A stretch of 64,000 nt of DNA from an uncultured bacterium (GTDB taxonomy: Bacteria; Patescibacteriota; Minisyncoccia; Phycocordibacterales; Phycocordibacteraceae). Below the pieces are notes generated by a model. That model worked only from the letters and a program-made list of their open reading frames with translations, was not told the DNA's origin and did not search any database. The stretch is taken from positions 267,766 to 331,765 of the forward strand of contig CALFMK010000001.1 in NCBI GenBank assembly GCA_937879955.1, written 5' to 3'. This document shows, piece by piece, positions 54,032-63,241 of the stretch. Numbering within the stretch: position 1 is the first letter of the stretch; each line of letters starts with the position of its first letter. The position numbers and the translations under genes are program-made.

Positions 54032-55930
54032 TTACCACCACACAGAGAGCCCTGCAGCCTTCATCTTGGCACGTGTAATCGGTCCGAAGTATCCGATTGA
54101 AGGATTCACGCCATGGGCTGCCTGGTATTTCGCAAGCGCATTCTTCGTCAGCGTACCGAAGAAGTTCGTTTCGTTGCCTGCACTGCCGACGCCAGTTTCC
54201 GAGAGCTTGAAGCCATTTGCATTAAGCAACTTCTGGAGATTGCGCACGTCCTCCCCGGCCATACCCAACTCAAGATCACGGACGCCTTCCGCCCCGTTCG
54301 CTCCGGTGACCGTTGAACCAGTCGTACCGAACAGGTTTGGCCACTGGGTTTTGAGTACGTCCGCCGCTGCCGCATTGCCCATATCCATAAGACTCTTCAC
54401 CTGTGCCTGTACCGAACCTCCGGAGCGGGAACGCGGCCGTGATTCAGGCTCTGGATCTGATGTGGGGTCTTCCTCTTCTTCAGGCGTACACGCACTCGTA
54501 TCGAAGGTCTGGTCTGACCCCGTAGTCGTACCCACGCTATTTACTGCATACGCGGCATAATGATAGGTCGTCTCGCAGTAAAGCTCCGTGACCACGGCCG
54601 TATATGCGCCCGTACCGAAGCTTCCCGATTCCGTTGTCGTGGCACCGTATGCCGTACTATCGCCGTATACGAACCCTCGCACCGTCGGAGTCTGGGTGCC
54701 GAGATCCGTTATGGTTCCATTCAGCGTTACGCTCGATTCCCCTGCTGAGGATGCTGCCTGCGTAGTGACCATAGGGGCGGACGGCACGATCGAATACGAC
54801 ACGACCGCAAGCTTATTGGCCTGCGACTGATCCCGGAATGCCGCATAGGGAGTCCCTGCAGAATCAAAGGCAAGCGTAGTGTACCGAGCGACATCGGTAG
54901 AGAATCCCGCTGTGCCCACACTGATCCAGCTGCTGCCGTCGTATTTCCGTACGCTCGTCTTAGAGCTGTTGCCACCGTCCTGGAAAATAGCATACGGCGT
55001 GGTGCTGCCGTTCGGGAACGTGATATTGGTAAAAGCTGCAGCACCGCTCGTAAATCCAGCTGATCCGACAGTATCCCAGCTCGATCCATTGAACTTGAGG
55101 GCCGTTGCCTTATCGCTATTCCCGCCATCCTGGAAAATGAGATACGGTGTAGTACTGCCCGTCGGGAACGCTATGTGCGTACCATATGCCGTACCTACAG
55201 ATAAATCGGTGGCCCCAGCCCCCACCCAGCTCCCACCAGAGAATCCCATGACCGTAGCCTTGCCGCCGCTTGCGGCATTGCTGAATGCTACGTACATCGT
55301 ATCGTTGTCTGATATTGCGAGAGAGAGGTAGTCTGCAGAATCCGGAGAGAACCCTTCAACGCCGAGCGCCCCCCAAGAGGTTCCGTCATATCTCATTACT
55401 GTTGCCTTATTGCCGTTCGCTTCATCTTCATACGCGACAACAGGCCTCCCGAGCGAATCGAAGGCCAGGGATATGAAACCAGCGCCCCCCGCCGAGAATC
55501 CCACAGCGCCCACCGCGACCCAACTACTACCGTTGTACTTCATAACGGTGGCCTTGCTGCCGTTAGCTTCATCTCGATATGCTACGTACGGTGTGGTGCT
55601 GCCTGCAGGAAACGCAAGGGACGTGTATATTACGCCGCCAGCAGAGAACCCAGTACTTCCGACTGCGACCCAATTGCTACCGTTGTACTTCAGTACAGTT
55701 GCCTTCCCGCTATTAGCCACATCTACGAAAGCCACGTACGGCGTGGTGCTGCCTGTAGGGATTGCGATGGAGGTATATACGGCTGCATCTGAAGTGATGC
55801 CTGCCGCGCCGACATTCTGCCAGGCATACGAGACCGCGAGCGCAGACGATGGGAATAAAAATGATATGGCAACTATCGCTGCAACTGGCAATGATGTCAG
55901 TGGTCTTAGGGAGAGTCCTTGTTTCTTCAT
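54032..55930 (-). CDS. secreted repeat protein (7 x ~50-aa beta-propeller-like repeats) with C-terminal peptidoglycan-binding domain
   Basis: start at MKKQGLSLRPLTSLPVAAIVAISFLFPSSALA (signal peptide); repeats GFS.G.A.YTSLAFP.GSTTPYVA..D.ANGSKATV.KYNGSSWV.VG; PG_binding_1-like C-terminus (DVRNLQKLLNANGF..AKYQAAHG). Confidence 0.7.
   Translation of the reverse strand: MKKQGLSLRPLTSLPVAAIVAISFLFPSSALAVSYAWQNVGAAGITSDAAVYTSIAIPTGSTTPYVAFVDVANSGKATVLKYNGSNWVAVGSTGFSAGGVIYTSLAFPAGSTTPYVAYRDEANGSKATVMKYNGSSWVAVGAVGFSAGGAGFISLAFDSLGRPVVAYEDEANGNKATVMRYDGTSWGALGVEGFSPDSADYLSLAISDNDTMYVAFSNAASGGKATVMGFSGGSWVGAGATDLSVGTAYGTHIAFPTGSTTPYLIFQDGGNSDKATALKFNGSSWDTVGSAGFTSGAAAFTNITFPNGSTTPYAIFQDGGNSSKTSVRKYDGSSWISVGTAGFSTDVARYTTLAFDSAGTPYAAFRDQSQANKLAVVSYSIVPSAPMVTTQAASSAGESSVTLNGTITDLGTQTPTVRGFVYGDSTAYGATTTESGSFGTGAYTAVVTELYCETTYHYAAYAVNSVGTTTGSDQTFDTSACTPEEEEDPTSDPEPESRPRSRSGGSVQAQVKSLMDMGNAAAADVLKTQWPNLFGTTGSTVTGANGAEGVRDLELGMAGEDVRNLQKLLNANGFKLSETGVGSAGNETNFFGTLTKNALAKYQAAHGVNPSIGYFGPITRAKMKAAGLSVWW
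54740..55775. repeat. intragenic tandem repeats (~150-bp unit x ~7, diverged)
   Basis: seen at protein and DNA level inside 54032..55930. Confidence 0.5.
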
Positions 55931-56247
55931 GAAGTAACTGTAGCCCAGCTCTTTTACTTTTCTTGAAGGGGGGGGTGTTAATAGCGAATAGCTCACGAGC
56001 CTTGAAAGGTTTATGTCTTTACCATGCGGAACTTTACAGTCGCCGACAGATCAGTGACACAAGTACGCTTTAAGACTCCGTATCAGATACCTGCCCAGAC
56101 GCCTGAAAACGCCGAGCTCTCAACAATGCTGGCCGTCTCGTGTTAGAACCCTGGTCGGTCAAGCCCTGCTTAGTCCGTTTAGCTCCCTTCTAGGTTATCG
56201 AAACGACGCGTCTCGTGCGCTTCAAAAAGTGACAAAAGTGACAGTCC

Positions 56248-56835
56248 CTAGGCTTCATCAATATACTTCTCCAGCATTCTCTTTTTGGCCGCCTCAAGAG
56301 CTTCTGGAGTTGTAAGGATCTCAGGATAACGATAAATCATTCCTCCCTTTGAACGATCGAAAGCTCTTAGGTACTGATCTAGGTAAATCTGAGGGTTTAT
56401 ATAAATTACACCTCCCTCCTTCTTCCAGCCTTCGGACATATCGAAGTTATAGCCGATTTCGTGTCCTGCAACATTGAGCCAGCGATGAGCGATTACATTT
56501 CGCCATTCGTGTATTTCTGAAGCTATTGTTGAGAACTTCTTATCATCAGGATCACCGTCCATATCCATGTAGATCTGAACAAACTTCCTGTATCCCTTTT
56601 GACCGTCTTTTCCAAAAAAGCCATGAGAAATAGTAAGGGCAACTGAATGCACTCCTAGAAACATCAGTGACGTCTGACGATTATTTGGATTATCGAAAGT
56701 CGCTGCGATTTCATTATTAAAGAAATTTTGTATGGAGCCTAGTAGAGACTCAATTATTTCGACAGGTTCACTTTTCTGGAATCGATCCGTTCTATGCTCC
56801 CTGGTCTCATTCATATGCGCGTTGTTTTGAGACAT
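56248..56835 (-). CDS. HEPN-like domain protein (Abi_2/AbiD-like RNxxAH motif), putative RNase effector
   Basis: motif SEIHEWRNVIAHRW (R-x4-H with N after R); last gene of a five-gene operon; ~40% GC. Confidence 0.4.
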   Translation of the reverse strand: MSQNNAHMNETREHRTDRFQKSEPVEIIESLLGSIQNFFNNEIAATFDNPNNRQTSLMFLGVHSVALTISHGFFGKDGQKGYRKFVQIYMDMDGDPDDKKFSTIASEIHEWRNVIAHRWLNVAGHEIGYNFDMSEGWKKEGGVIYINPQIYLDQYLRAFDRSKGGMIYRYPEILTTPEALEAAKKRMLEKYIDEA

Positions 56836-56840
56836 ATGTT

Positions 56841-57404
56841 TTATTGATAAACGCAAAGTCCATTGATTATCGGATTAATGACACTGTATATCTGCCAGAT
56901 AAATAGTGAGATCAGCGCTCCGTAAGTGAGGAGGACGAGCCATGAATGCTTGTTGCCGTTCATTTCCTTAAACAACGGGATCATCCCTTTCTGTCGCCAC
57001 TCCTCTTTTGCTTGCTTGTCTCCAAACAGTTCCTTGTACAGAGATCGCACAAACTGCACCCCGATGTAAATGAAACCGAAGCCAACGAGCGTCATTAGTG
57101 AGTCGTTAGCTACCCTATCCACTTCTGGAAGTCCGCAATATGATTGCCCGATAAACAGAATGAAGCTCAACCCAACGCTCGCTACCAATAGCGAACGAAA
57201 GACGCTGTATCCGGCGACAAACCAAAGCGCCGAAAAGAAAATACCAAATACGACTACGAACATCACTGGCGTGACTGCCGAAAGGAACTGTGTGTTGATC
57301 AGGAAGAACGTCGCCAGGGCAACTGCCATTAGAAAAATTAGGAAGGTCTTTTGGTTCTTTCCTTCTATCCCCAGTTTTTGTAAGAACCTCTTGAACCACC
57401 CCAT
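56841..57404 (-). CDS. 4-TM membrane protein (hypothetical), operon with TIR/SLATT-like genes
   Basis: 187 aa; 4-nt gap to upstream gene. Confidence 0.5.
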   Translation of the reverse strand: MGWFKRFLQKLGIEGKNQKTFLIFLMAVALATFFLINTQFLSAVTPVMFVVVFGIFFSALWFVAGYSVFRSLLVASVGLSFILFIGQSYCGLPEVDRVANDSLMTLVGFGFIYIGVQFVRSLYKELFGDKQAKEEWRQKGMIPLFKEMNGNKHSWLVLLTYGALISLFIWQIYSVINPIINGLCVYQ

Positions 57405-57408
57405 GGAT

Positions 57409-58239
57409 CTAGACGAGGGCCATTAACTGCAACATAAACCCTATGGTGATGAGTGTTGCTCCAATCACACCCCACTTTCTCTGCCCAAGACGGTCTTGAA
57501 CTTGAGGTAACTTTAAATTCTCTTCATCTGTACTACCAGACCAGCGAGATAGTCCGAGTCTAATGGCTTCCTTTTTAGAGATAAAAAGACCCTTCGCAAA
57601 AGCGAGACTGCCCAAGAAGGTCAGGGCGAGGCCAAGAATATTCAGGTAACTATCGATACCCACCGGCACTATCATTGGCGGAATATTTCCTGATATGAGA
57701 GACCAGGGAATGACTGAGGCGGCCAGCGCAATGTAAATTGCAATAAAGATTTTAGGGACATGAAGCTCAATATGACTGAATGGCCAATACACCTTCTTAT
57801 CCTCTCCACGCCCAAGCATCTCCCACTCAGTGTCATATAAAGCAAGCGGCAAGCGCTTCTCTATCATGTGAACCACCTTAAACTTCGCACTATTCAACCC
57901 TTTATACGAAGCAATGATTCTGTACCAAAGGTAGCAGACCGTAACGCCTGCAACTGAAGAGGCTGCTAGTATTAGGCCAATCTCTTGCTCGTTTGTCTTG
58001 GTGGCAACAAAACCCAACAGTGCAACAAGTGCAGTATTCAACCCCAGAAAGAATTCGTTCGTTTTTTGTCTACGATCACTGATTTTCTCAGTGGCATTAA
58101 TATAAATTTTGTATTGGTCCAAGAGATGCTCAATGTATCTATCGCCGTACTGCTCGGACGCAGATACAAAGAGCATCTTTTCTACATCTTGCTTTTCCTT
58201 GTTCATATATTTAAGCAAGCTCGCGAATACCCGAGACAA
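57409..58239 (-). CDS. SLATT-like multi-TM putative pore-forming effector protein
   Basis: 276 aa; ~60-aa cytoplasmic N-terminal helix, TM hairpin (FFLGLNTALVALLGFVA / IGLILAASSVAGVTVCYLWYRII), amphipathic region and 3 further TM helices; overlaps or abuts upstream TIR-like gene. Confidence 0.5.
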   Translation of the reverse strand: MSRVFASLLKYMNKEKQDVEKMLFVSASEQYGDRYIEHLLDQYKIYINATEKISDRRQKTNEFFLGLNTALVALLGFVATKTNEQEIGLILAASSVAGVTVCYLWYRIIASYKGLNSAKFKVVHMIEKRLPLALYDTEWEMLGRGEDKKVYWPFSHIELHVPKIFIAIYIALAASVIPWSLISGNIPPMIVPVGIDSYLNILGLALTFLGSLAFAKGLFISKKEAIRLGLSRWSGSTDEENLKLPQVQDRLGQRKWGVIGATLITIGFMLQLMALV

Positions 58240-58618
58240 TGGAACTGGTATTCCACTTCACTATCTTGTCGGCATACTTCTTTACAGTCAGAGAAGTTCT
58301 CTCGCTTGCCCAGGGCTCAATTGCAAGAATCGGCTTTGGATTTGTGAATCCCTGAGCAATTGCAATTTCCTTGTTGATCCAAGTACTGTAAGTCGAGTAC
58401 ACGCCAGCAAGAATAATAATCACGTCACAGAAGCGCATTTGCTCTTGAATTGCACGTGATAGCGCAGCTGAGCTGGGTGCATTGTGAATTGGGTCATTCT
58501 TTGGGACGGAGTAGTTCCTGAAGTTAAATCGCGGATCAGCGTTGAGCATTTTTACAAGCTTCTCGTACGCATCGCCGTATGCCCAAGAATGGCTAATGAA
58601 AATGTTGTAGTGGCGCAT
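58211..58618 (-). CDS. TIR-like domain protein (DUF1863/ThsB-like)
   Basis: 135 aa; YNIFISHSW..D.Y..L...L...P.F.F.NYSVP..DPIH...S.ALS.AI..QM..CDVIIILAGVYSTYSTWINKEI. Confidence 0.6.
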   Translation of the reverse strand: MRHYNIFISHSWAYGDAYEKLVKMLNADPRFNFRNYSVPKNDPIHNAPSSAALSRAIQEQMRFCDVIIILAGVYSTYSTWINKEIAIAQGFTNPKPILAIEPWASERTSLTVKKYADKIVKWNTSSIVSGIRELA

Positions 58619-58623
58619 GCAAC

Positions 58624-58995
58624 TTAAAGATTATTAATAAATGCTCTGATATTGTCCCAGCTCCAAAGATTCACTCGCTTTGTGCTAAGTGGGTATGGCA
58701 AGATGGGCCTATCACTACTTGAATACATCAGCATCATCGGTATCCCTTCCTCTTCTGCGGCCCTTATTTCAAAAAGCTGTCCAGTCGCCGAAGGTGTGTG
58801 CTTACTGATTAGCGCAATGACACCATCACACCCCTTGATACGTGACCGACACTTGACCTCCCAATCAGTCTCCCATGGCTGCTTCACAGACATATCCACG
58901 AATTCGAATGGAGAATTCTCGTTCCTTGCCTGGCCAACAAGAAAATCTCTTGAGCGAACATCTTCAATTGCAAATGCAATGAAAATTCTTTTCAT
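58624..58995 (-). CDS. TIR-like domain protein (DUF1863/ThsB-like), first gene of operon
   Basis: 123 aa; KRIFIAFAIEDVRSRDFLVGQARNENSPFEFVDMSV..CDGVIALISKHTPSATGQLFEI..A.EEGIP; AAGGAG 12 nt upstream of ATG. Confidence 0.6.
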   Translation of the reverse strand: MKRIFIAFAIEDVRSRDFLVGQARNENSPFEFVDMSVKQPWETDWEVKCRSRIKGCDGVIALISKHTPSATGQLFEIRAAEEEGIPMMLMYSSSDRPILPYPLSTKRVNLWSWDNIRAFINNL

Positions 58996-59203
58996 GAGGA
59001 AAGTATGAACTCCTTCCAGGAAAAAGCAAACAACACATTTTAGAAATAATCCAGGAAAACTTTAGATTTTCTTTAGATAATCCTACTTATCCCCTTGCAT
59101 GGAATTCTCATCTTGCTAGGGTTAACTAGTTAACCAAGCTCTGAATACCTGCTGGTAGAAGGTATTCGCAAACGACTAACTTACACAGTTAATATGTTTT
59201 GTC

Positions 59204-60478
59204 ATGAGCAAACTATCTTGGACTACGGTCCAAAAGCGGGTGAACGACCTCGTTCCCCAAGAAGTTAATCCCCGTTCTATTACCGACCATCAGATGGCGG
59301 ATCTTAAGCGAAGTCTTAAGAAGTACAACTTAGTAGAGATTCCAGCCATTGATGCCAATGGCAAAATTCTCGCAGGGCACCAACGTATCAAAGCCCTCCA
59401 GCTTCTTGGTAGAGGCGATGAGCTGATAGACGTGCGCTTCCCTTCTCGAAAGCTCACCAAACTAGAGTCAGAAGAGTATCTCATAGCCTCTAACAAGCTT
59501 GGCGGTGATTGGGACTTTGATCTTCTAAAGTCGTTTGATCTAGGTACTCTGGAATTCGCAGGATTTGACCAGATCGAGATTGCAGAGATATGGGACAAAG
59601 ATAAGGAAGTAAAAGACGACGAGTTCGATATAGAGAAGGAACTCAAGCAAATTAAGAAGCCAAAGACTAAGCTTGGAGACGTAATCACTCTAGGCCACCA
59701 TAGAATCCTCTGCGGAGACTCGACCAAATCCGAGAACCTTAAGCGGCTCCTGGGCAATCAGAAGGCTTCAATGATCTACTCCGACCCTGTCTATAATCTC
59801 GACATCAATTATGACGGTGGGGTTAGCGGGAATAAGGAGTACGGTGGCAAGGTAAACGATTCTCGCTCCTTCGAGGAATATCGAACCTTCCTGAGAGACA
59901 GTATGGAAGCGGCACTAGCCGTGTCCTCGAAAGATACCCATGTCTTCTACTGGTGCGATCAGGTATATATCGGCGTGGTTCAGGAAATTTATCGAGCGCT
60001 CGGCATAGCTAATAAACGAGTGTGTCTCTGGCTCAAGAACAACCACAACCCAGTCCCTAGTGTGGCGTTCAACAAGGTATACGAGCCAGTAGTGTACGGA
60101 GTTCGTGGAAAGCCTTATTTAGCTGACACCATGCAGAATCTGAATGAGGTCATGAACAAGGAGATGAGCTCAGGGAATGACCTACTTGATGAAGTAGATG
60201 TCTGGACTGCAAAGCGTCTTTCAGCGAAAGACTATGAGCACGCCACCTCTAAGCCGCCTCAGCTCCACGAGCGAGCCATTAAGCGCTGCACGAAGCCAGG
60301 AGACATCATCCTTGATAGCTTCCTTGGATCAGGCAGTACGCTTATAGCCGGAGAGTCACTCGGTCGCAAGGTTTACGGCTGCGAGCTTGAACCGCAGTTC
60401 TGTGATCTTATCGTACGTAGGTACGAGAAGATGACAGGTAAGAAAGCAGTGTATGAAAAAGACCAAAGCACTGCTTGA
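59204..60478 (+). CDS. ParB-like nuclease domain / DNA methyltransferase (N6-adenine/N4-cytosine, beta class) fusion protein
   Basis: N-terminal ParB/Srx motif (IPAIDANGKILAGHQRIKALQ), catalytic (D/S)PP(Y/F)-type motif SDPVYN, C-terminal AdoMet motif FLGSGST. Confidence 0.85.
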   Translation: MSKLSWTTVQKRVNDLVPQEVNPRSITDHQMADLKRSLKKYNLVEIPAIDANGKILAGHQRIKALQLLGRGDELIDVRFPSRKLTKLESEEYLIASNKLGGDWDFDLLKSFDLGTLEFAGFDQIEIAEIWDKDKEVKDDEFDIEKELKQIKKPKTKLGDVITLGHHRILCGDSTKSENLKRLLGNQKASMIYSDPVYNLDINYDGGVSGNKEYGGKVNDSRSFEEYRTFLRDSMEAALAVSSKDTHVFYWCDQVYIGVVQEIYRALGIANKRVCLWLKNNHNPVPSVAFNKVYEPVVYGVRGKPYLADTMQNLNEVMNKEMSSGNDLLDEVDVWTAKRLSAKDYEHATSKPPQLHERAIKRCTKPGDIILDSFLGSGSTLIAGESLGRKVYGCELEPQFCDLIVRRYEKMTGKKAVYEKDQSTA

Positions 60479-61037
60479 TAGGCTTGTAGAAGAACTCGAG
60501 AAAACTCCACTGATCCAAATTGCTTGCGACAAAGTCGGTATTTCCAGAAACACCTTCTATCGCTGGATGAAGGAGGACGAGGACTTTCTCGCTCGTGTTA
60601 ATGAAGCCGTATCACTAGGTACGGGTCTTGTTAGTGACGTGGCCATAAGCAACGTACTGGAAGGCATCAAGAAGAAAGATGCCATGTATACGAAGTACTG
60701 GCTAAGCCACAAACATCCTGACTTCCGGCGACCATATGTTCATAGGATCGATGCAGATGATCTCCTTCTACACTCTCGCCTTCTTGCTGAAGGAGCTCAG
60801 AAACATAAGGTTGAGCAACAGATAGCGAATTCACGCGGGTACATCGATGAAGAGATGTCACGGAGACAGGAAGCAGAAGTCGATGACTTTATGGAGAAGT
60901 GGGATCACATCGTAGCCAAGGGAGACGAAGAACGCGCCAAAGTCTTATTCGAGAAGTGGAAGAAGGAATACGAGACTCAAGTGCCAGACACTCCTCCACC
61001 CGACAATAAGAAGCCTCGTAAGAAGAACTGGCGATAA
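60453..61037 (+). CDS. HTH-domain protein, possible phage terminase small subunit (TerS-like)
   Basis: N-terminal HTH (IACDKVGISRNTFYRWMKEDEDF), charged C-terminus; sits downstream of ParB-MTase as in phage packaging modules. Confidence 0.45.
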   Translation: MKKTKALLDRLVEELEKTPLIQIACDKVGISRNTFYRWMKEDEDFLARVNEAVSLGTGLVSDVAISNVLEGIKKKDAMYTKYWLSHKHPDFRRPYVHRIDADDLLLHSRLLAEGAQKHKVEQQIANSRGYIDEEMSRRQEAEVDDFMEKWDHIVAKGDEERAKVLFEKWKKEYETQVPDTPPPDNKKPRKKNWR

Positions 61038-61280
61038 TTATTCTTTCACTTGATCTGCAAGAAGCTTCTTCCCTACTGGAGAATCAACCGGGATCATATT
61101 TGTTGATCCGCAAACTGGGCATGCCTTATGTCGAGAAGTTGATCTCCAAATGGAATAGATGATTCCTGGAATAATGAAGCAGAGGAATAGAACTATCTCT
61201 ATCAACATACTTCCCTTAATTGCCGTACGAGGATTACCTACGTGTCCGCACGATGCACAAATCATTTCTTGCTTAGCCAT
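61038..61280 (-). CDS. zinc-ribbon membrane protein (hypothetical)
   Basis: 80 aa; CxxC...TM...CPVC arrangement. Confidence 0.45.
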   Translation of the reverse strand: MAKQEMICASCGHVGNPRTAIKGSMLIEIVLFLCFIIPGIIYSIWRSTSRHKACPVCGSTNMIPVDSPVGKKLLADQVKE

Positions 61281-61283
61281 TTT

Positions 61284-61430
61284 GTTGTTGGTTCGGTTTT
61301 GTAATTCCCGATGGCCAGATACACAAAAATCCCGCCACCAGGAGGACCCTTACGGGTATCCCTACCTAAGTTTCCCTAGGTAACCGAACCAACGACCCTG
61401 ATGACGGGGTTTTTACGTTGGTTCGGATTT
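61284..61430. repeat. iteron-like short repeats (GTTGGTTCGG x2 direct at 61287 and 61417; inverted copy at 61384) in a 334-bp intergenic region
   Basis: read directly; lies between divergent genes upstream of the integrase module. Confidence 0.35.
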
Positions 61431-61614
61431 TCGGCCATATCCTTTGGAAACCAAAGGGGTTAGGCCATTTTTATTCAATTGTAGACAGGTTCCCCTGCCA
61501 TCTTCTGATGGTATCGCAGTTCTTAGAGTTTGCTAAGCCTGTCCACGACCATGCGACGAATCCATAGTTCTGCATAGACTATGCACCGGCCACCAGTCTG
61601 GCATCAATTAATAG

Positions 61615-61917
61615 GTGGAGGACAGGGACGTAATCTTAGATAAAGCAGCCCATTACCGTTTTACGAAAGAAGCCGATAGTGCCTACCTGAACAGGATCTC
61701 CCTACTCCCAAATTCCAAGAAGGACTTGAAACGAGCGATCCTTGAAAGGATTGAAGAATTGATAGTTTCCTATAGCTCTCTTGCTACATACGTACCAGAC
61801 GAGTTGATCGATTGGCTCAATACGCACCAAGGTACGGACAGGAGCCGGAAAGTCTATCTACGTGTAATCCGAGATATTGAACGACTTCGATCCGAAGCCG
61901 TAAGTAAATTGAAATAA
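61615..61917 (+). CDS. hypothetical protein, translationally coupled to the integrase (4-nt gap)
   Basis: 100-aa ORF, low GC. Confidence 0.45.
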   Translation: MEDRDVILDKAAHYRFTKEADSAYLNRISLLPNSKKDLKRAILERIEELIVSYSSLATYVPDELIDWLNTHQGTDRSRKVYLRVIRDIERLRSEAVSKLK

Positions 61918-61921
61918 CTAT

Positions 61922-63241
61922 ATGCAAACTTTAGAAACCTCACAGATAGGGTTATCGCCCGTCATTATTGAAGAGAAAGTCAAATACTGTTTGTACGCTC
62001 GTAAATCTACCGAGTCCGACGAGAAGCAAGCTCTTTCGATAGATTCCCAGATTAAGGAAATGCTCCAGATTGCCGAGCGAGAGAATCTGGAAATTGTCGA
62101 TATTCGGAGAGAATCTCACTCGGCCAAGGATTCAGGACAGCGACCGGTCTACCAGGAACTTTTAGAGGACATTCGAAGAGGACGATTCAATGCAGTACTA
62201 ACTTGGGCACCTGATCGGTTAAGTAGAAACGCTGGCGACTTAGGAACGCTCGTAGATCTGATGGATCAGAAGCTGCTTCTTGAGATCCGTACCTATGGGC
62301 AACACTTCAGAAACTCCCCTAACGAGAAATTCCTCCTGATGATTCTCTGCTCCCAAGCCAAGCTCGAAAACGATAATAAAAGCATTAACGTAAAGAGAGG
62401 TTTGAAAACGCGCGTAGAAATGGGGCTTTGGCCAAGCCGAGCGCCAACGGGATACCTGAACGAGAAACGAATGGATAGGAAATGCGAGAGTATTCTCGAC
62501 CCAGACAGGGCGATGATAATTAAGAAAATGTTTGAGAAGGTTGCATACGAGAAGTGGAGCGGACGAAAGGTGTATAACTGGCTGAAATTCGAGCTTAACT
62601 TTAAGACCGCTGCCGGCAACAAAAATCTTAGTCTCGGAAATATCTTTAGCATTCTCGAGAATCATTTCTACTACGGGGTCTTTGAGTACCCGAAAAACTC
62701 TGGACGGTGGTATCAAGGGAAACATGAACCACTTATCTCTAAGGAGCTATTTGATCAAGTTCAAGCTCAAATGAAAAGCCAGGTTGTTCGTTCAGAGAGT
62801 AAGGAATTTGCGTTCACGCGTCTTATGGAATGTGGGATGTGCGGTTCAGGTGTTACTGCTGACGAGAAGTTTAAAAAGCAAAAGAATGGAAATATCCATC
62901 GACACGTTTATTACAGCTGTACGAGGTCTAAAGATAGAAATTGTAAGAATGGCTACCTAAACGAAGAAGTTCTTATCGAGCAGTTCGTACAGCTCATGGA
63001 TACTATTGATATCGATGAGATCGGTATTAAAGAAAAGATAAAGGCCGAAGTGGGACGATTCAAAAAGTTCCAACAGTCAGTCCTCGGGGTTACGGAAAAA
63101 GCTGAGGTGAAAGATGTAGATATACGGAACTATGCAAAATACTTATTACGGGAAGGGGTTAGTACAGAGAAACGAGAACTACTTGGTTGTTTAAAAAGCA
63201 GAATAGTCTTACAAGACAAAGAAATCGCACTAAAACCTTAG
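61922..63241 (+). CDS. large serine recombinase (resolvase-domain integrase)
   Basis: catalytic Ser region YARKSTESDEKQALSIDSQ, recombinase domain, Cys-rich zinc-ribbon (CGMCGS..YYSCTRSKDRNC), C-terminal coiled coil. Confidence 0.9.
   Translation: MQTLETSQIGLSPVIIEEKVKYCLYARKSTESDEKQALSIDSQIKEMLQIAERENLEIVDIRRESHSAKDSGQRPVYQELLEDIRRGRFNAVLTWAPDRLSRNAGDLGTLVDLMDQKLLLEIRTYGQHFRNSPNEKFLLMILCSQAKLENDNKSINVKRGLKTRVEMGLWPSRAPTGYLNEKRMDRKCESILDPDRAMIIKKMFEKVAYEKWSGRKVYNWLKFELNFKTAAGNKNLSLGNIFSILENHFYYGVFEYPKNSGRWYQGKHEPLISKELFDQVQAQMKSQVVRSESKEFAFTRLMECGMCGSGVTADEKFKKQKNGNIHRHVYYSCTRSKDRNCKNGYLNEEVLIEQFVQLMDTIDIDEIGIKEKIKAEVGRFKKFQQSVLGVTEKAEVKDVDIRNYAKYLLREGVSTEKRELLGCLKSRIVLQDKEIALKP

Follow-up and report, generated by a model that had tools for sequence, protein, structure and literature searches.

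A TIR and 8xMP gene module of the putative '3TM' Thoeris type on a Patescibacteria-like mobile element

Introduction

The 64,000-nucleotide window analysed here, a stretch of contig CALFMK010000001.1 from an uncultured bacterium of the Patescibacteriota, carries five closely packed minus-strand genes (genes 1 to 5, Table 1) on a small mobile island. Genes 1, 2 and 3, which encode two TIR proteins and a membrane protein of the Pfam family 8xMP, belong to the '3TM' putative Thoeris type by both their TIR cluster and their effector family. It is likely that these three genes form a Thoeris-type abortive-infection module, in which a TIR signal is passed to the 8xMP membrane effector, on an element of the candidate phyla radiation (Patescibacteria-like). 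Genes 4 and 5 are probably functionally separate cargo in a mosaic region. An original prediction, made from the letters of the window and their translations, had read all five genes as one undescribed Thoeris-like antiphage system with a SLATT-type effector.

TIR Genes and 8xMP as the Conserved Unit

Loci were gathered through exact-protein look-ups, plasmid searches, a scan of genomes for gene 2 and scans of metagenomes and viral sequences with the 8xMP alignment, and the open reading frames (ORFs) in all of them were labelled with profiles built from the window proteins; individual loci are given below as L numbers. In the 61 distinct loci in which 900 bp or more lie upstream of 8xMP, both TIR genes stand directly upstream in 14, only the gene-1-like TIR in 26 and only the gene-2-like TIR in 9, and neither is found in the remaining 12. 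As regards the conserved TIR-adjacent effector by which a Thoeris system is recognised, a TIR gene thus precedes 8xMP in 49 of these 61 loci. Many loci are complete two-gene TIR-8xMP operons, and the pair is also carried by plasmids of Synechococcus elongatus, Polaromonas and Haematospirillum, which represent three phyla or classes. On mobile elements, the neighbours of the module include restriction-modification genes, genes for nSTAND-type NTPases and toxin-antitoxin genes.

The genes downstream of 8xMP behave differently from those upstream. Among the 49 distinct loci in which 1.5 kb or more of sequence follows 8xMP, genes 4 and 5 occur jointly only in the window's own element; gene 4 accompanies 8xMP nowhere else, and gene 5 recurs in a single further 8xMP locus (L042), in which an unrelated protein of 362 amino acids (aa) intervenes. 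As neither gene 4 nor gene 5 is conserved together with the TIR/8xMP core, the conserved unit consists of one or two TIR genes together with 8xMP. A recurrent third component downstream of 8xMP was also considered and was rejected, the clustered downstream ORFs being hypervariable.

Three arrangements encountered during this survey merit separate description. In a representative library, a 299-aa protein (P0370) matches ThsB_TIR over residues 7-82 and 8xMP over residues 158-293; it may be a genuine fusion or two genes merged in calling, and in either case it supports a functional coupling of TIR and 8xMP. On the Polaromonas sp. H8N plasmid pH8NP2 (L138, 2540-4531), a TIR gene, 8xMP and a gene with a PIN_12 domain, a predicted RNase, follow each other with gaps of 0-2 nucleotides (nt), directly after the gene for a type I restriction R subunit. 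Homologous multi-zinc-ribbon proteins of ~355 aa are encoded after 8xMP at L006:8801-9862 and L042:4955-6043, in elements that otherwise differ.

The TIR Proteins

Both TIR genes encode ThsB-type TIR proteins with the catalytic glutamate that is expected of a Thoeris system, which bears out what had been proposed for them from their motifs. Gene 2 is the clearer of the two by Pfam score, with matches to Pfam ThsB_TIR (E=1.3e-16), PADLOC ThsB1 (E=1.5e-12) and PHROG 6988 (E=1.9e-37), and with 60% identity to EcTIR, the type IV ThsB of E. coli 328; its catalytic residue, E84, is invariant. The product of gene 1 matches Pfam ThsB_TIR with E=3.3e-4 and 21.5 bits (cut-off 21.2) and PADLOC ThsB with E=1.8e-3. 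It is 42% identical over 121 aa to PsTIR, the type IV ThsB of Pseudomonas sp. 1-7 (E=2e-33), and 78% identical to a TIR that is labelled 'Caspase - Type IV' in Table S1 of Yirmiya and others (Yirmiya et al., 2025, bioRxiv 10.64898/2025.12.03.692087). Residue E76 of gene 1 is invariant and is aligned with the glutamate in the 'WEI' of PsTIR, which by residue count is taken as the E79 that Rousset et al. mutated. By homology, genes 1 and 2 are therefore TIR proteins of the PsTIR and EcTIR families, respectively, and they are predicted to be signal synthases or sensors.

The 8xMP Membrane Protein

The product of gene 3 matches the Pfam family PF24838 with E=2.3e-42 and 144.4 bits, against a cut-off of 30. 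The match spans residues 40-176 of the 276-aa ORF and profile positions 1-134 of 136. The Pfam title of this family, which we take as a name only, is 'octameric membrane protein family (8xMP)', and a literature search on '8xMP' and 'octameric membrane protein' returned nothing relevant on the origin of the name. The family is large, with 3403 cluster representatives retrieved by the 8xMP profile at E of at most 1e-3.

The domain consists of an N-terminal cytoplasmic helix, a transmembrane (TM) hairpin, a conserved loop and a third TM helix. Among 346 close homologues, a long form (~265 aa) and a short form (~176 aa) can be distinguished, and gene 3 is of the long form, in which the three TM helices of the 8xMP domain are followed by a C-terminal extension with two more. 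Its five hydrophobic segments start at residues 51, 75, 148, 190 and 245, and its AlphaFold2 monomer model is all-helical, with a predicted local distance difference test (pLDDT) score of 74.7. On the predicted cytoplasmic face of 8xMP, which is highly conserved, the invariant residues include D44, R45, R46, N50, R118, E127, W128, Y140 and W141; the conserved motifs are SDRRxKxNEFFLxLN in the N-terminal helix and RLPLALYDTEWE...YWP in the loop.

The expectation that gene 3 encodes a multi-TM protein genetically coupled to the TIR genes was thereby confirmed, and its assignment to the SLATT type was not supported by sequence. In Pfam, none of SLATT_1-6 and DUF4231 matched gene 3 at E of at most 1, and a comparison by hhalign of the 8xMP profile with a Rhizobium SLATT_3+SLATT_1 protein that adjoins a TIR returned a probability of 1%. 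The PDB matches of the gene 3 fold comparison contained no SLATT structure with which the fold could be compared. At the level of sequence and profile, SLATT is thus ruled out by Pfam and hhalign.

A clade of stand-alone 8xMP genes, with 43-45% identity to gene 3 and no TIR neighbour, was observed in L123, L124, L129 and L131 (8xMP at about 4000). In L123, L124 and L131 the gene lies in a conserved synteny with genes for a PIF1-like helicase and a LexA-like protein of 188 aa, in L129 with the helicase gene only, and in L123 and L131 it lies near ATP synthase genes.

Relation to Described Thoeris Types

Yirmiya and others catalogued 29 putative Thoeris types, of which types V-XI were validated, and listed among the predicted ones a putative class named '3TM' (their Fig. 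1C and Table S1; Yirmiya et al., 2025). The TIRs that this table lists under '3TM' include four with 100% identity to those of L057, L083, L071 and L097, loci that had been retrieved independently. In each of these four loci the next gene, as labelled with the profile of gene 3 homologues, is an 8xMP gene whose product is 66-77% identical to gene 3. The identical TIRs with 8xMP next door indicate that '3TM' is 8xMP and that the window holds a further member of the class. The TIRs are close as well: gene 2 shares 75-89% identity with those of the four loci, 57-65% with three of four other '3TM' TIRs and 50% with the fourth. L057, a scaffold of the published table, has the same TIR-TIR-long-8xMP layout as the window, and nothing essential sets the window apart from the '3TM' class.

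The claim of an undescribed system is consequently withdrawn, as TIR with '3TM' is already in Table S1 and the combination of TIR with SLATT that had been supposed has been validated, both as type VII and as Shaseng. What is added here beyond the preprint is the identification of '3TM' with Pfam 8xMP, the presence of a second, PsTIR-like TIR, and the long form with five TM helices.

Among the validated systems, type VII Thoeris and Shaseng come near in architecture. The first combines ThsB with the SLATT protein ThsH and uses canonical cyclic ADP-ribose (cADPR) as the signal (Yirmiya et al., 2025); the second is a TIR-TIR-SLATT system for which antiphage activity was demonstrated and in which only a single TIR active site, not both, is required (10.1101/2024.12.27.630466). 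Both resemble the window in having one or two TIRs and, as effector, a small multi-TM protein that combines a TM hairpin with a cytoplasmic helix at its N-terminus. However, their effector is a SLATT protein, whereas gene 3 has no SLATT match, and 'SLATT' and '3TM' are treated as separate effector classes by Yirmiya and others (2025).

Type IV Thoeris shares both TIR families with the window, but its effector is the caspase-like ThsE, while 8xMP occupies the effector position in the window. None of the five window proteins matched Peptidase_C14, and only 5 nt lie between genes 1 and 2. In type II Thoeris, the TIR signal (His-ADPR) activates a membrane-disrupting Macro-TM effector, yet the TIR family differs from those of the window. 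In agreement with what had been noted from the sequence, no SIR2, SLOG or Macro domain was found in the five proteins by Pfam and PADLOC scans, which excludes types I, II and III. The general plan of a TIR joined to a TM effector has been validated in Thoeris types II, VI, VII and X and in Shaseng.

Effector Exchange and the Likely Signal

The partners of the two TIR families give an indication of the signal. Rousset and others described that metabolites of infected cells carrying EcTIR or PsTIR activate the caspase effector of type IV, that the signal is N7-cADPR, and that little NAD+ is depleted (Rousset et al., 10.1101/2024.10.24.620036 / Science 2025). In Patescibacteria-type loci, both TIR families were found in three arrangements: around a caspase, with both effectors, and with 8xMP alone. 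The first is seen in L038, in which a gene-1-like TIR, a Peptidase_C14 gene and a gene-2-like TIR occur without 8xMP, the TIRs being 77% and 84% identical to those of the window. The second is seen at L035:2647-5203 and L062:2267-4525, where a gene-1-like TIR, a Peptidase_C14 caspase, a gene-2-like TIR and 8xMP form one operon.

All four TIR-effector pairings are found in nature. For gene-1-like TIRs, the partner is a caspase in L024 and 8xMP in many loci; for gene-2-like TIRs, it is 8xMP in loci such as L007 and, for the more distant ones of Pseudomonas, Undibacterium and other genera, a caspase. This pairing of close TIR relatives with a caspase points to an ADP-ribose-derived signal, possibly N7-cADPR, as what opens the membrane effector. 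That the messenger is N7-cADPR itself has, in our judgement, slightly less than an even chance, and canonical cADPR is the alternative.

The type VII TIR cluster is instructive in this respect. Relatives of the type VII TIR in Arsenophonus, Thiolapillus and Bacillus cereus (L141, L143 and L144) are mostly paired with a caspase, and in Rhizobium the partner is SLATT; within this cluster, effectors are freely exchanged, and the effector type is not predictable from TIR similarity. In L141, a plasmid of Arsenophonus, a gene annotated as a 569-aa HEPN-domain protein was observed just upstream.

Proposed Mechanism

The mechanism that we infer as probable for genes 1 to 3 would begin with phage infection, upon which one or both TIRs would use NAD+ to make a second messenger derived from ADP-ribose. 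In the simplest model this signal is shared between the effectors, and it would bind the cytoplasmic face of 8xMP, which is predicted to be made up of the invariant N-terminal helix with its SDRRxKxNEFFLxLN motif and of the RLPLALYDTEWE...YWP loop. The 8xMP protein would then oligomerise or open, membrane integrity would collapse, and phage replication would stop before the release of progeny. A bolder version, in which N7-cADPR, the signal of the type IV caspase, would also gate 8xMP, making it a new class of membrane effector unrelated to SLATT, is considered tentative and rather unlikely.

A number of observations weigh against the proposed mechanism. With regard to the proteins, the Pfam score of gene 1 is marginal, the confidence of the gene 3 model is only moderate, the comparison of 8xMP with PDB by sequence and by fold was uninformative and gave no solved neighbour, and no recognisable ligand-binding domain was found in 8xMP. 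The TIR-less 8xMP clade among housekeeping genes means that TIR genes are not the only setting of the family, and it suggests that part of the family has a housekeeping or orphan role. With regard to the literature, the '3TM' class is not among the 30 operons tested by Yirmiya and others (2025), and no paper was found that tests TIR with 8xMP. With regard to the signal, the type VII TIR of Pseudohongiella, whose product is canonical cADPR, shares 43% identity with gene 2, and its closest plasmid homologue (66%, in L141) pairs with a caspase; TIR similarity does not fix the signal.

Genes 4 and 5 as Neighbouring Cargo

Gene 4 has four hydrophobic segments, so that its description as a 4-TM protein stands, and it has no family match in Pfam, PADLOC, NCBIfam or PHROGs. 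Its homologues number 40, and the named ones come from Parcubacteria/Paceibacterota. Two of their contexts were inspected, one with genes for a ParB-methyltransferase, RidA and a dCMP deaminase, the other with a NUDIX gene and a recombinase gene, and in neither was a TIR, 8xMP or gene 5 found nearby. At L030:5001-6487, a gene 4 homologue (67%) is followed by RidA (Ribonuc_L-PSP) and a dCMP/MafB19-type deaminase, beside a ParB-methyltransferase gene; this set is possibly a further cargo cassette carried by this family of elements.

Gene 5 does carry the HEPN-like motif EWRNVIAHRW for which it had been singled out. Residues H109, W111, R112, N113, H117 and W119 are invariant in 76 homologues, and they include the conserved Rx4-6H motif that marks HEPN proteins, in the form R112-N113-x3-H117. 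Gene 5 nevertheless differs from HEPN toxins and AbiV-type RNases, as it falls outside the HEPN Pfam families, none of which it matched, and as it has an extra C-terminal region formed by a beta-hairpin and a helical part. A PDB profile search and a scan of IMG/VR viral sequences returned nothing, and no MNT-type antitoxin gene adjoins gene 5. The family has no Pfam model and often lies near a serine recombinase gene.

The 82 homologues of gene 5 occur downstream of varied genes. They follow SAVED and SMODS genes in L021-L023, a TIR gene, a caspase gene (a type IV Thoeris cassette) and a gene for a 153-aa protein in L024-L027, a gene for an unrelated 536-aa protein in L028, TIR, 8xMP and the gene for the 362-aa protein in L042, and a gene for a Shedu SduA_C protein in L146. 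The idea that gene 5 always follows a gene for a membrane protein, so as to form a pair like that of genes 4 and 5, was rejected, since the proteins encoded before it in L021, L024, L028 and L042 lack TM segments. Gene 5 is most likely an independently assorting, stand-alone HEPN-type RNase gene, predicted to act in defence or as a toxin. A bolder addition to this reading would be that the gene 5 family is a common back-up RNase that these elements recruit beside diverse defence cassettes.

The claim that the five genes are one system, in which the TIR signal would drive 8xMP, the 4-TM protein and the HEPN-like RNase alike, has to be judged against this background. The genes lie on the same strand with gaps of 5, 4, 4 and 5 nt from gene 1 to gene 5, and no internal promoter or terminator rose above the shuffled background when the region was scanned, which makes co-transcription of all five plausible. 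In favour of a functional link it can also be said that gene 5 homologues come after three kinds of nucleotide-signalling cassette (SAVED with SMODS, TIR with caspase, and TIR with 8xMP), and that the PIN-domain gene of the Polaromonas plasmid starts 2 nt after its TIR-8xMP pair. However, the joint presence of genes 4 and 5 is confined to the window's element among the 49 loci, in which the gene after 8xMP is hypervariable; gene 4 homologues occur without TIR, 8xMP or gene 5; gene 5 homologues also come after Shedu and after the 536-aa protein; and many two-gene TIR-8xMP operons are complete as they stand. Genes 4 and 5, each found in unrelated contexts, are thus not co-conserved with the TIR/8xMP core, and the five-gene system is regarded as improbable.

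Other Roles for the TIR-8xMP Pair

A second alternative keeps genes 1 to 3 together and assigns their roles differently: the TIRs would be NAD+-depleting effectors with 8xMP as a sensor or anchor, or the pair would stabilise the element as a toxin-antitoxin or addiction module. Many bacterial TIRs are indeed NADase effectors (in CBASS, Pycsar and pAgo contexts), 8xMP is without a known ligand-binding domain, and the module is found on mobile elements and plasmids beside toxin-antitoxin genes. On the other hand, Rousset and others showed experimentally that the signal made by both TIR families is diffusible and that NAD+ is not substantially depleted, a signal-activated caspase takes the place of 8xMP beside the same TIRs in other loci, and the TIR proteins are bare domains of 123-135 aa, like ThsB. 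This alternative is given as little weight as the five-gene system. Least probable is a role outside defence, in which 8xMP would be a housekeeping or holin-like protein and the TIRs would regulate lysis or another membrane process of the element: the stand-alone clade in housekeeping synteny beside LexA-like and helicase genes, one 8xMP member with a weak match to a phage holin family (E=0.0023, under the cut-off) and the frequent position of the module after a LexA/S24 repressor gene in related elements would fit it, but TIR-8xMP pairs adjoin defence genes, among them those for restriction-modification, and are found on plasmids without phage genes, the TIR families are established generators of immune signals, and these TIR clusters were kept by Yirmiya and others (2025) because of their enrichment beside defence genes.

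Gene Layout and the Mobile Island

The features of the locus are collected in Table 1. The five minus-strand ORFs of the original prediction are all present, and their tight packing holds; the overlap of -29 nt that had been given between genes 2 and 3 arises solely if gene 3 is started at TTG, whereas its start on identical contigs is ATG according to the gene callers. The AAGGAG motif upstream of gene 1 is also in place, at 59015-59010, although a direct reading of the sequence puts its spacer to the ATG of gene 1 at 14 nt and not 12. In the divergent region between gene 1 and the ParB/N6_N4 methyltransferase gene, a sigma-70 scan found no site exceeding background. In related elements a LexA/S24 repressor gene is frequent at this position, and it is absent in the window.

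Table 1. Coordinates of the five genes, of the divergent intergenic region and of other genes on the mobile island (positions in the window).
Feature	Coordinates	Strand	Description
Gene 1	58995-58624	minus	123 aa, TIR-only protein
Gene 2	58618-58211	minus	135 aa, ThsB-type TIR protein
Gene 3	58206 (ATG) to 57409	minus	265 aa, membrane protein; alternative TTG start at 58239 gives 276 aa
Gene 4	57404-56841	minus	187 aa, 4-TM protein
Gene 5	56835-56248	minus	195 aa, HEPN-like protein
Divergent intergenic region between gene 1 and the ParB/N6_N4 methyltransferase gene	58996..59203		208 bp; presumed operon promoter region
ParB/N6_N4 methyltransferase gene	59204-60478	plus	Inside the island
Small terminase-like gene	60453-61037	plus	Inside the island; faint likeness to Sf6 terminase
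Large serine recombinase gene	61922-63241	plus	Inside the island
Mobile island	56128..63241		~7.1 kb, low GC (43-49%), carries the module; basis: GC profile, comparison with L001 and Pfam labels on the identical contig

The proposal that the genes sit on a small mobile island was borne out by a drop in guanine-cytosine (GC) content together with mobile-element genes. Most of 1-53 kb has a GC content of 60-68%, with 49-59% in a few 1-kb blocks, and 53-56 kb has 54-57%; at ~56,100 the content falls to 44-49%, and it stays there to the end of the window. With regard to the neighbours that had been named, the ParB-methyltransferase gene and a terminase-like gene, the latter faint in its likeness, are present, but the integrase is a large serine recombinase and not a tyrosine integrase. 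The backbone genes of the island also border TIR/8xMP modules in L006, L015, L037, L040 and L042.

An independent metagenome contig, L001, is identical to the window at 99.7% from 64000 down to 56128 and is divergent thereafter, which places one boundary of the island ~120 nt past the stop of gene 5. Either the element or its flank was rearranged between hosts, or one of the two contigs is an assembly chimera at ~56,128. The right-hand part that L001 (L001:12079) shares with the window takes in the flank with the LysM-M23 peptidase; the left flank of L001 differs and has 50-54% GC.

Two further minus-strand genes were observed around the module. Inside the island, 61038-61280 encodes an 80-aa protein with one TM helix between two CxxC pairs. 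Just outside it, 54032-55996 encodes a secreted 654-aa protein with a GSTTPY...ANxxKATV repeat, whose C-terminus, judged from sequence alone, is peptidoglycan-binding-like.

Conclusion

The identification of '3TM' with 8xMP has an immediate practical consequence, as an available Pfam model now serves to search for this class of Yirmiya and others. The present analysis also adds that the module is abundant on mobile elements of Patescibacteria and that the HEPN-like gene 5 family occurs beside diverse defence genes. There is also a lesson for annotation in genes 4 and 5, whose operon-like packing is no evidence of system membership in mosaic cargo regions.

If the proposed mechanism is true, a widespread effector family would be added to TIR immune signalling, and Thoeris-type immunity would be placed on mobile elements of the candidate phyla radiation, whose defence repertoire is little studied. 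The exchange of caspase and 8xMP, together with the loci that hold both effectors, gives a testable prediction of the signal that 8xMP senses. Should gating by N7-cADPR in turn prove true, one TIR signal would drive a protease and a membrane effector interchangeably or, as in L035 and L062, simultaneously, and in Patescibacteria, with their small genomes, the module would be a main form of nucleotide-signalling immunity.

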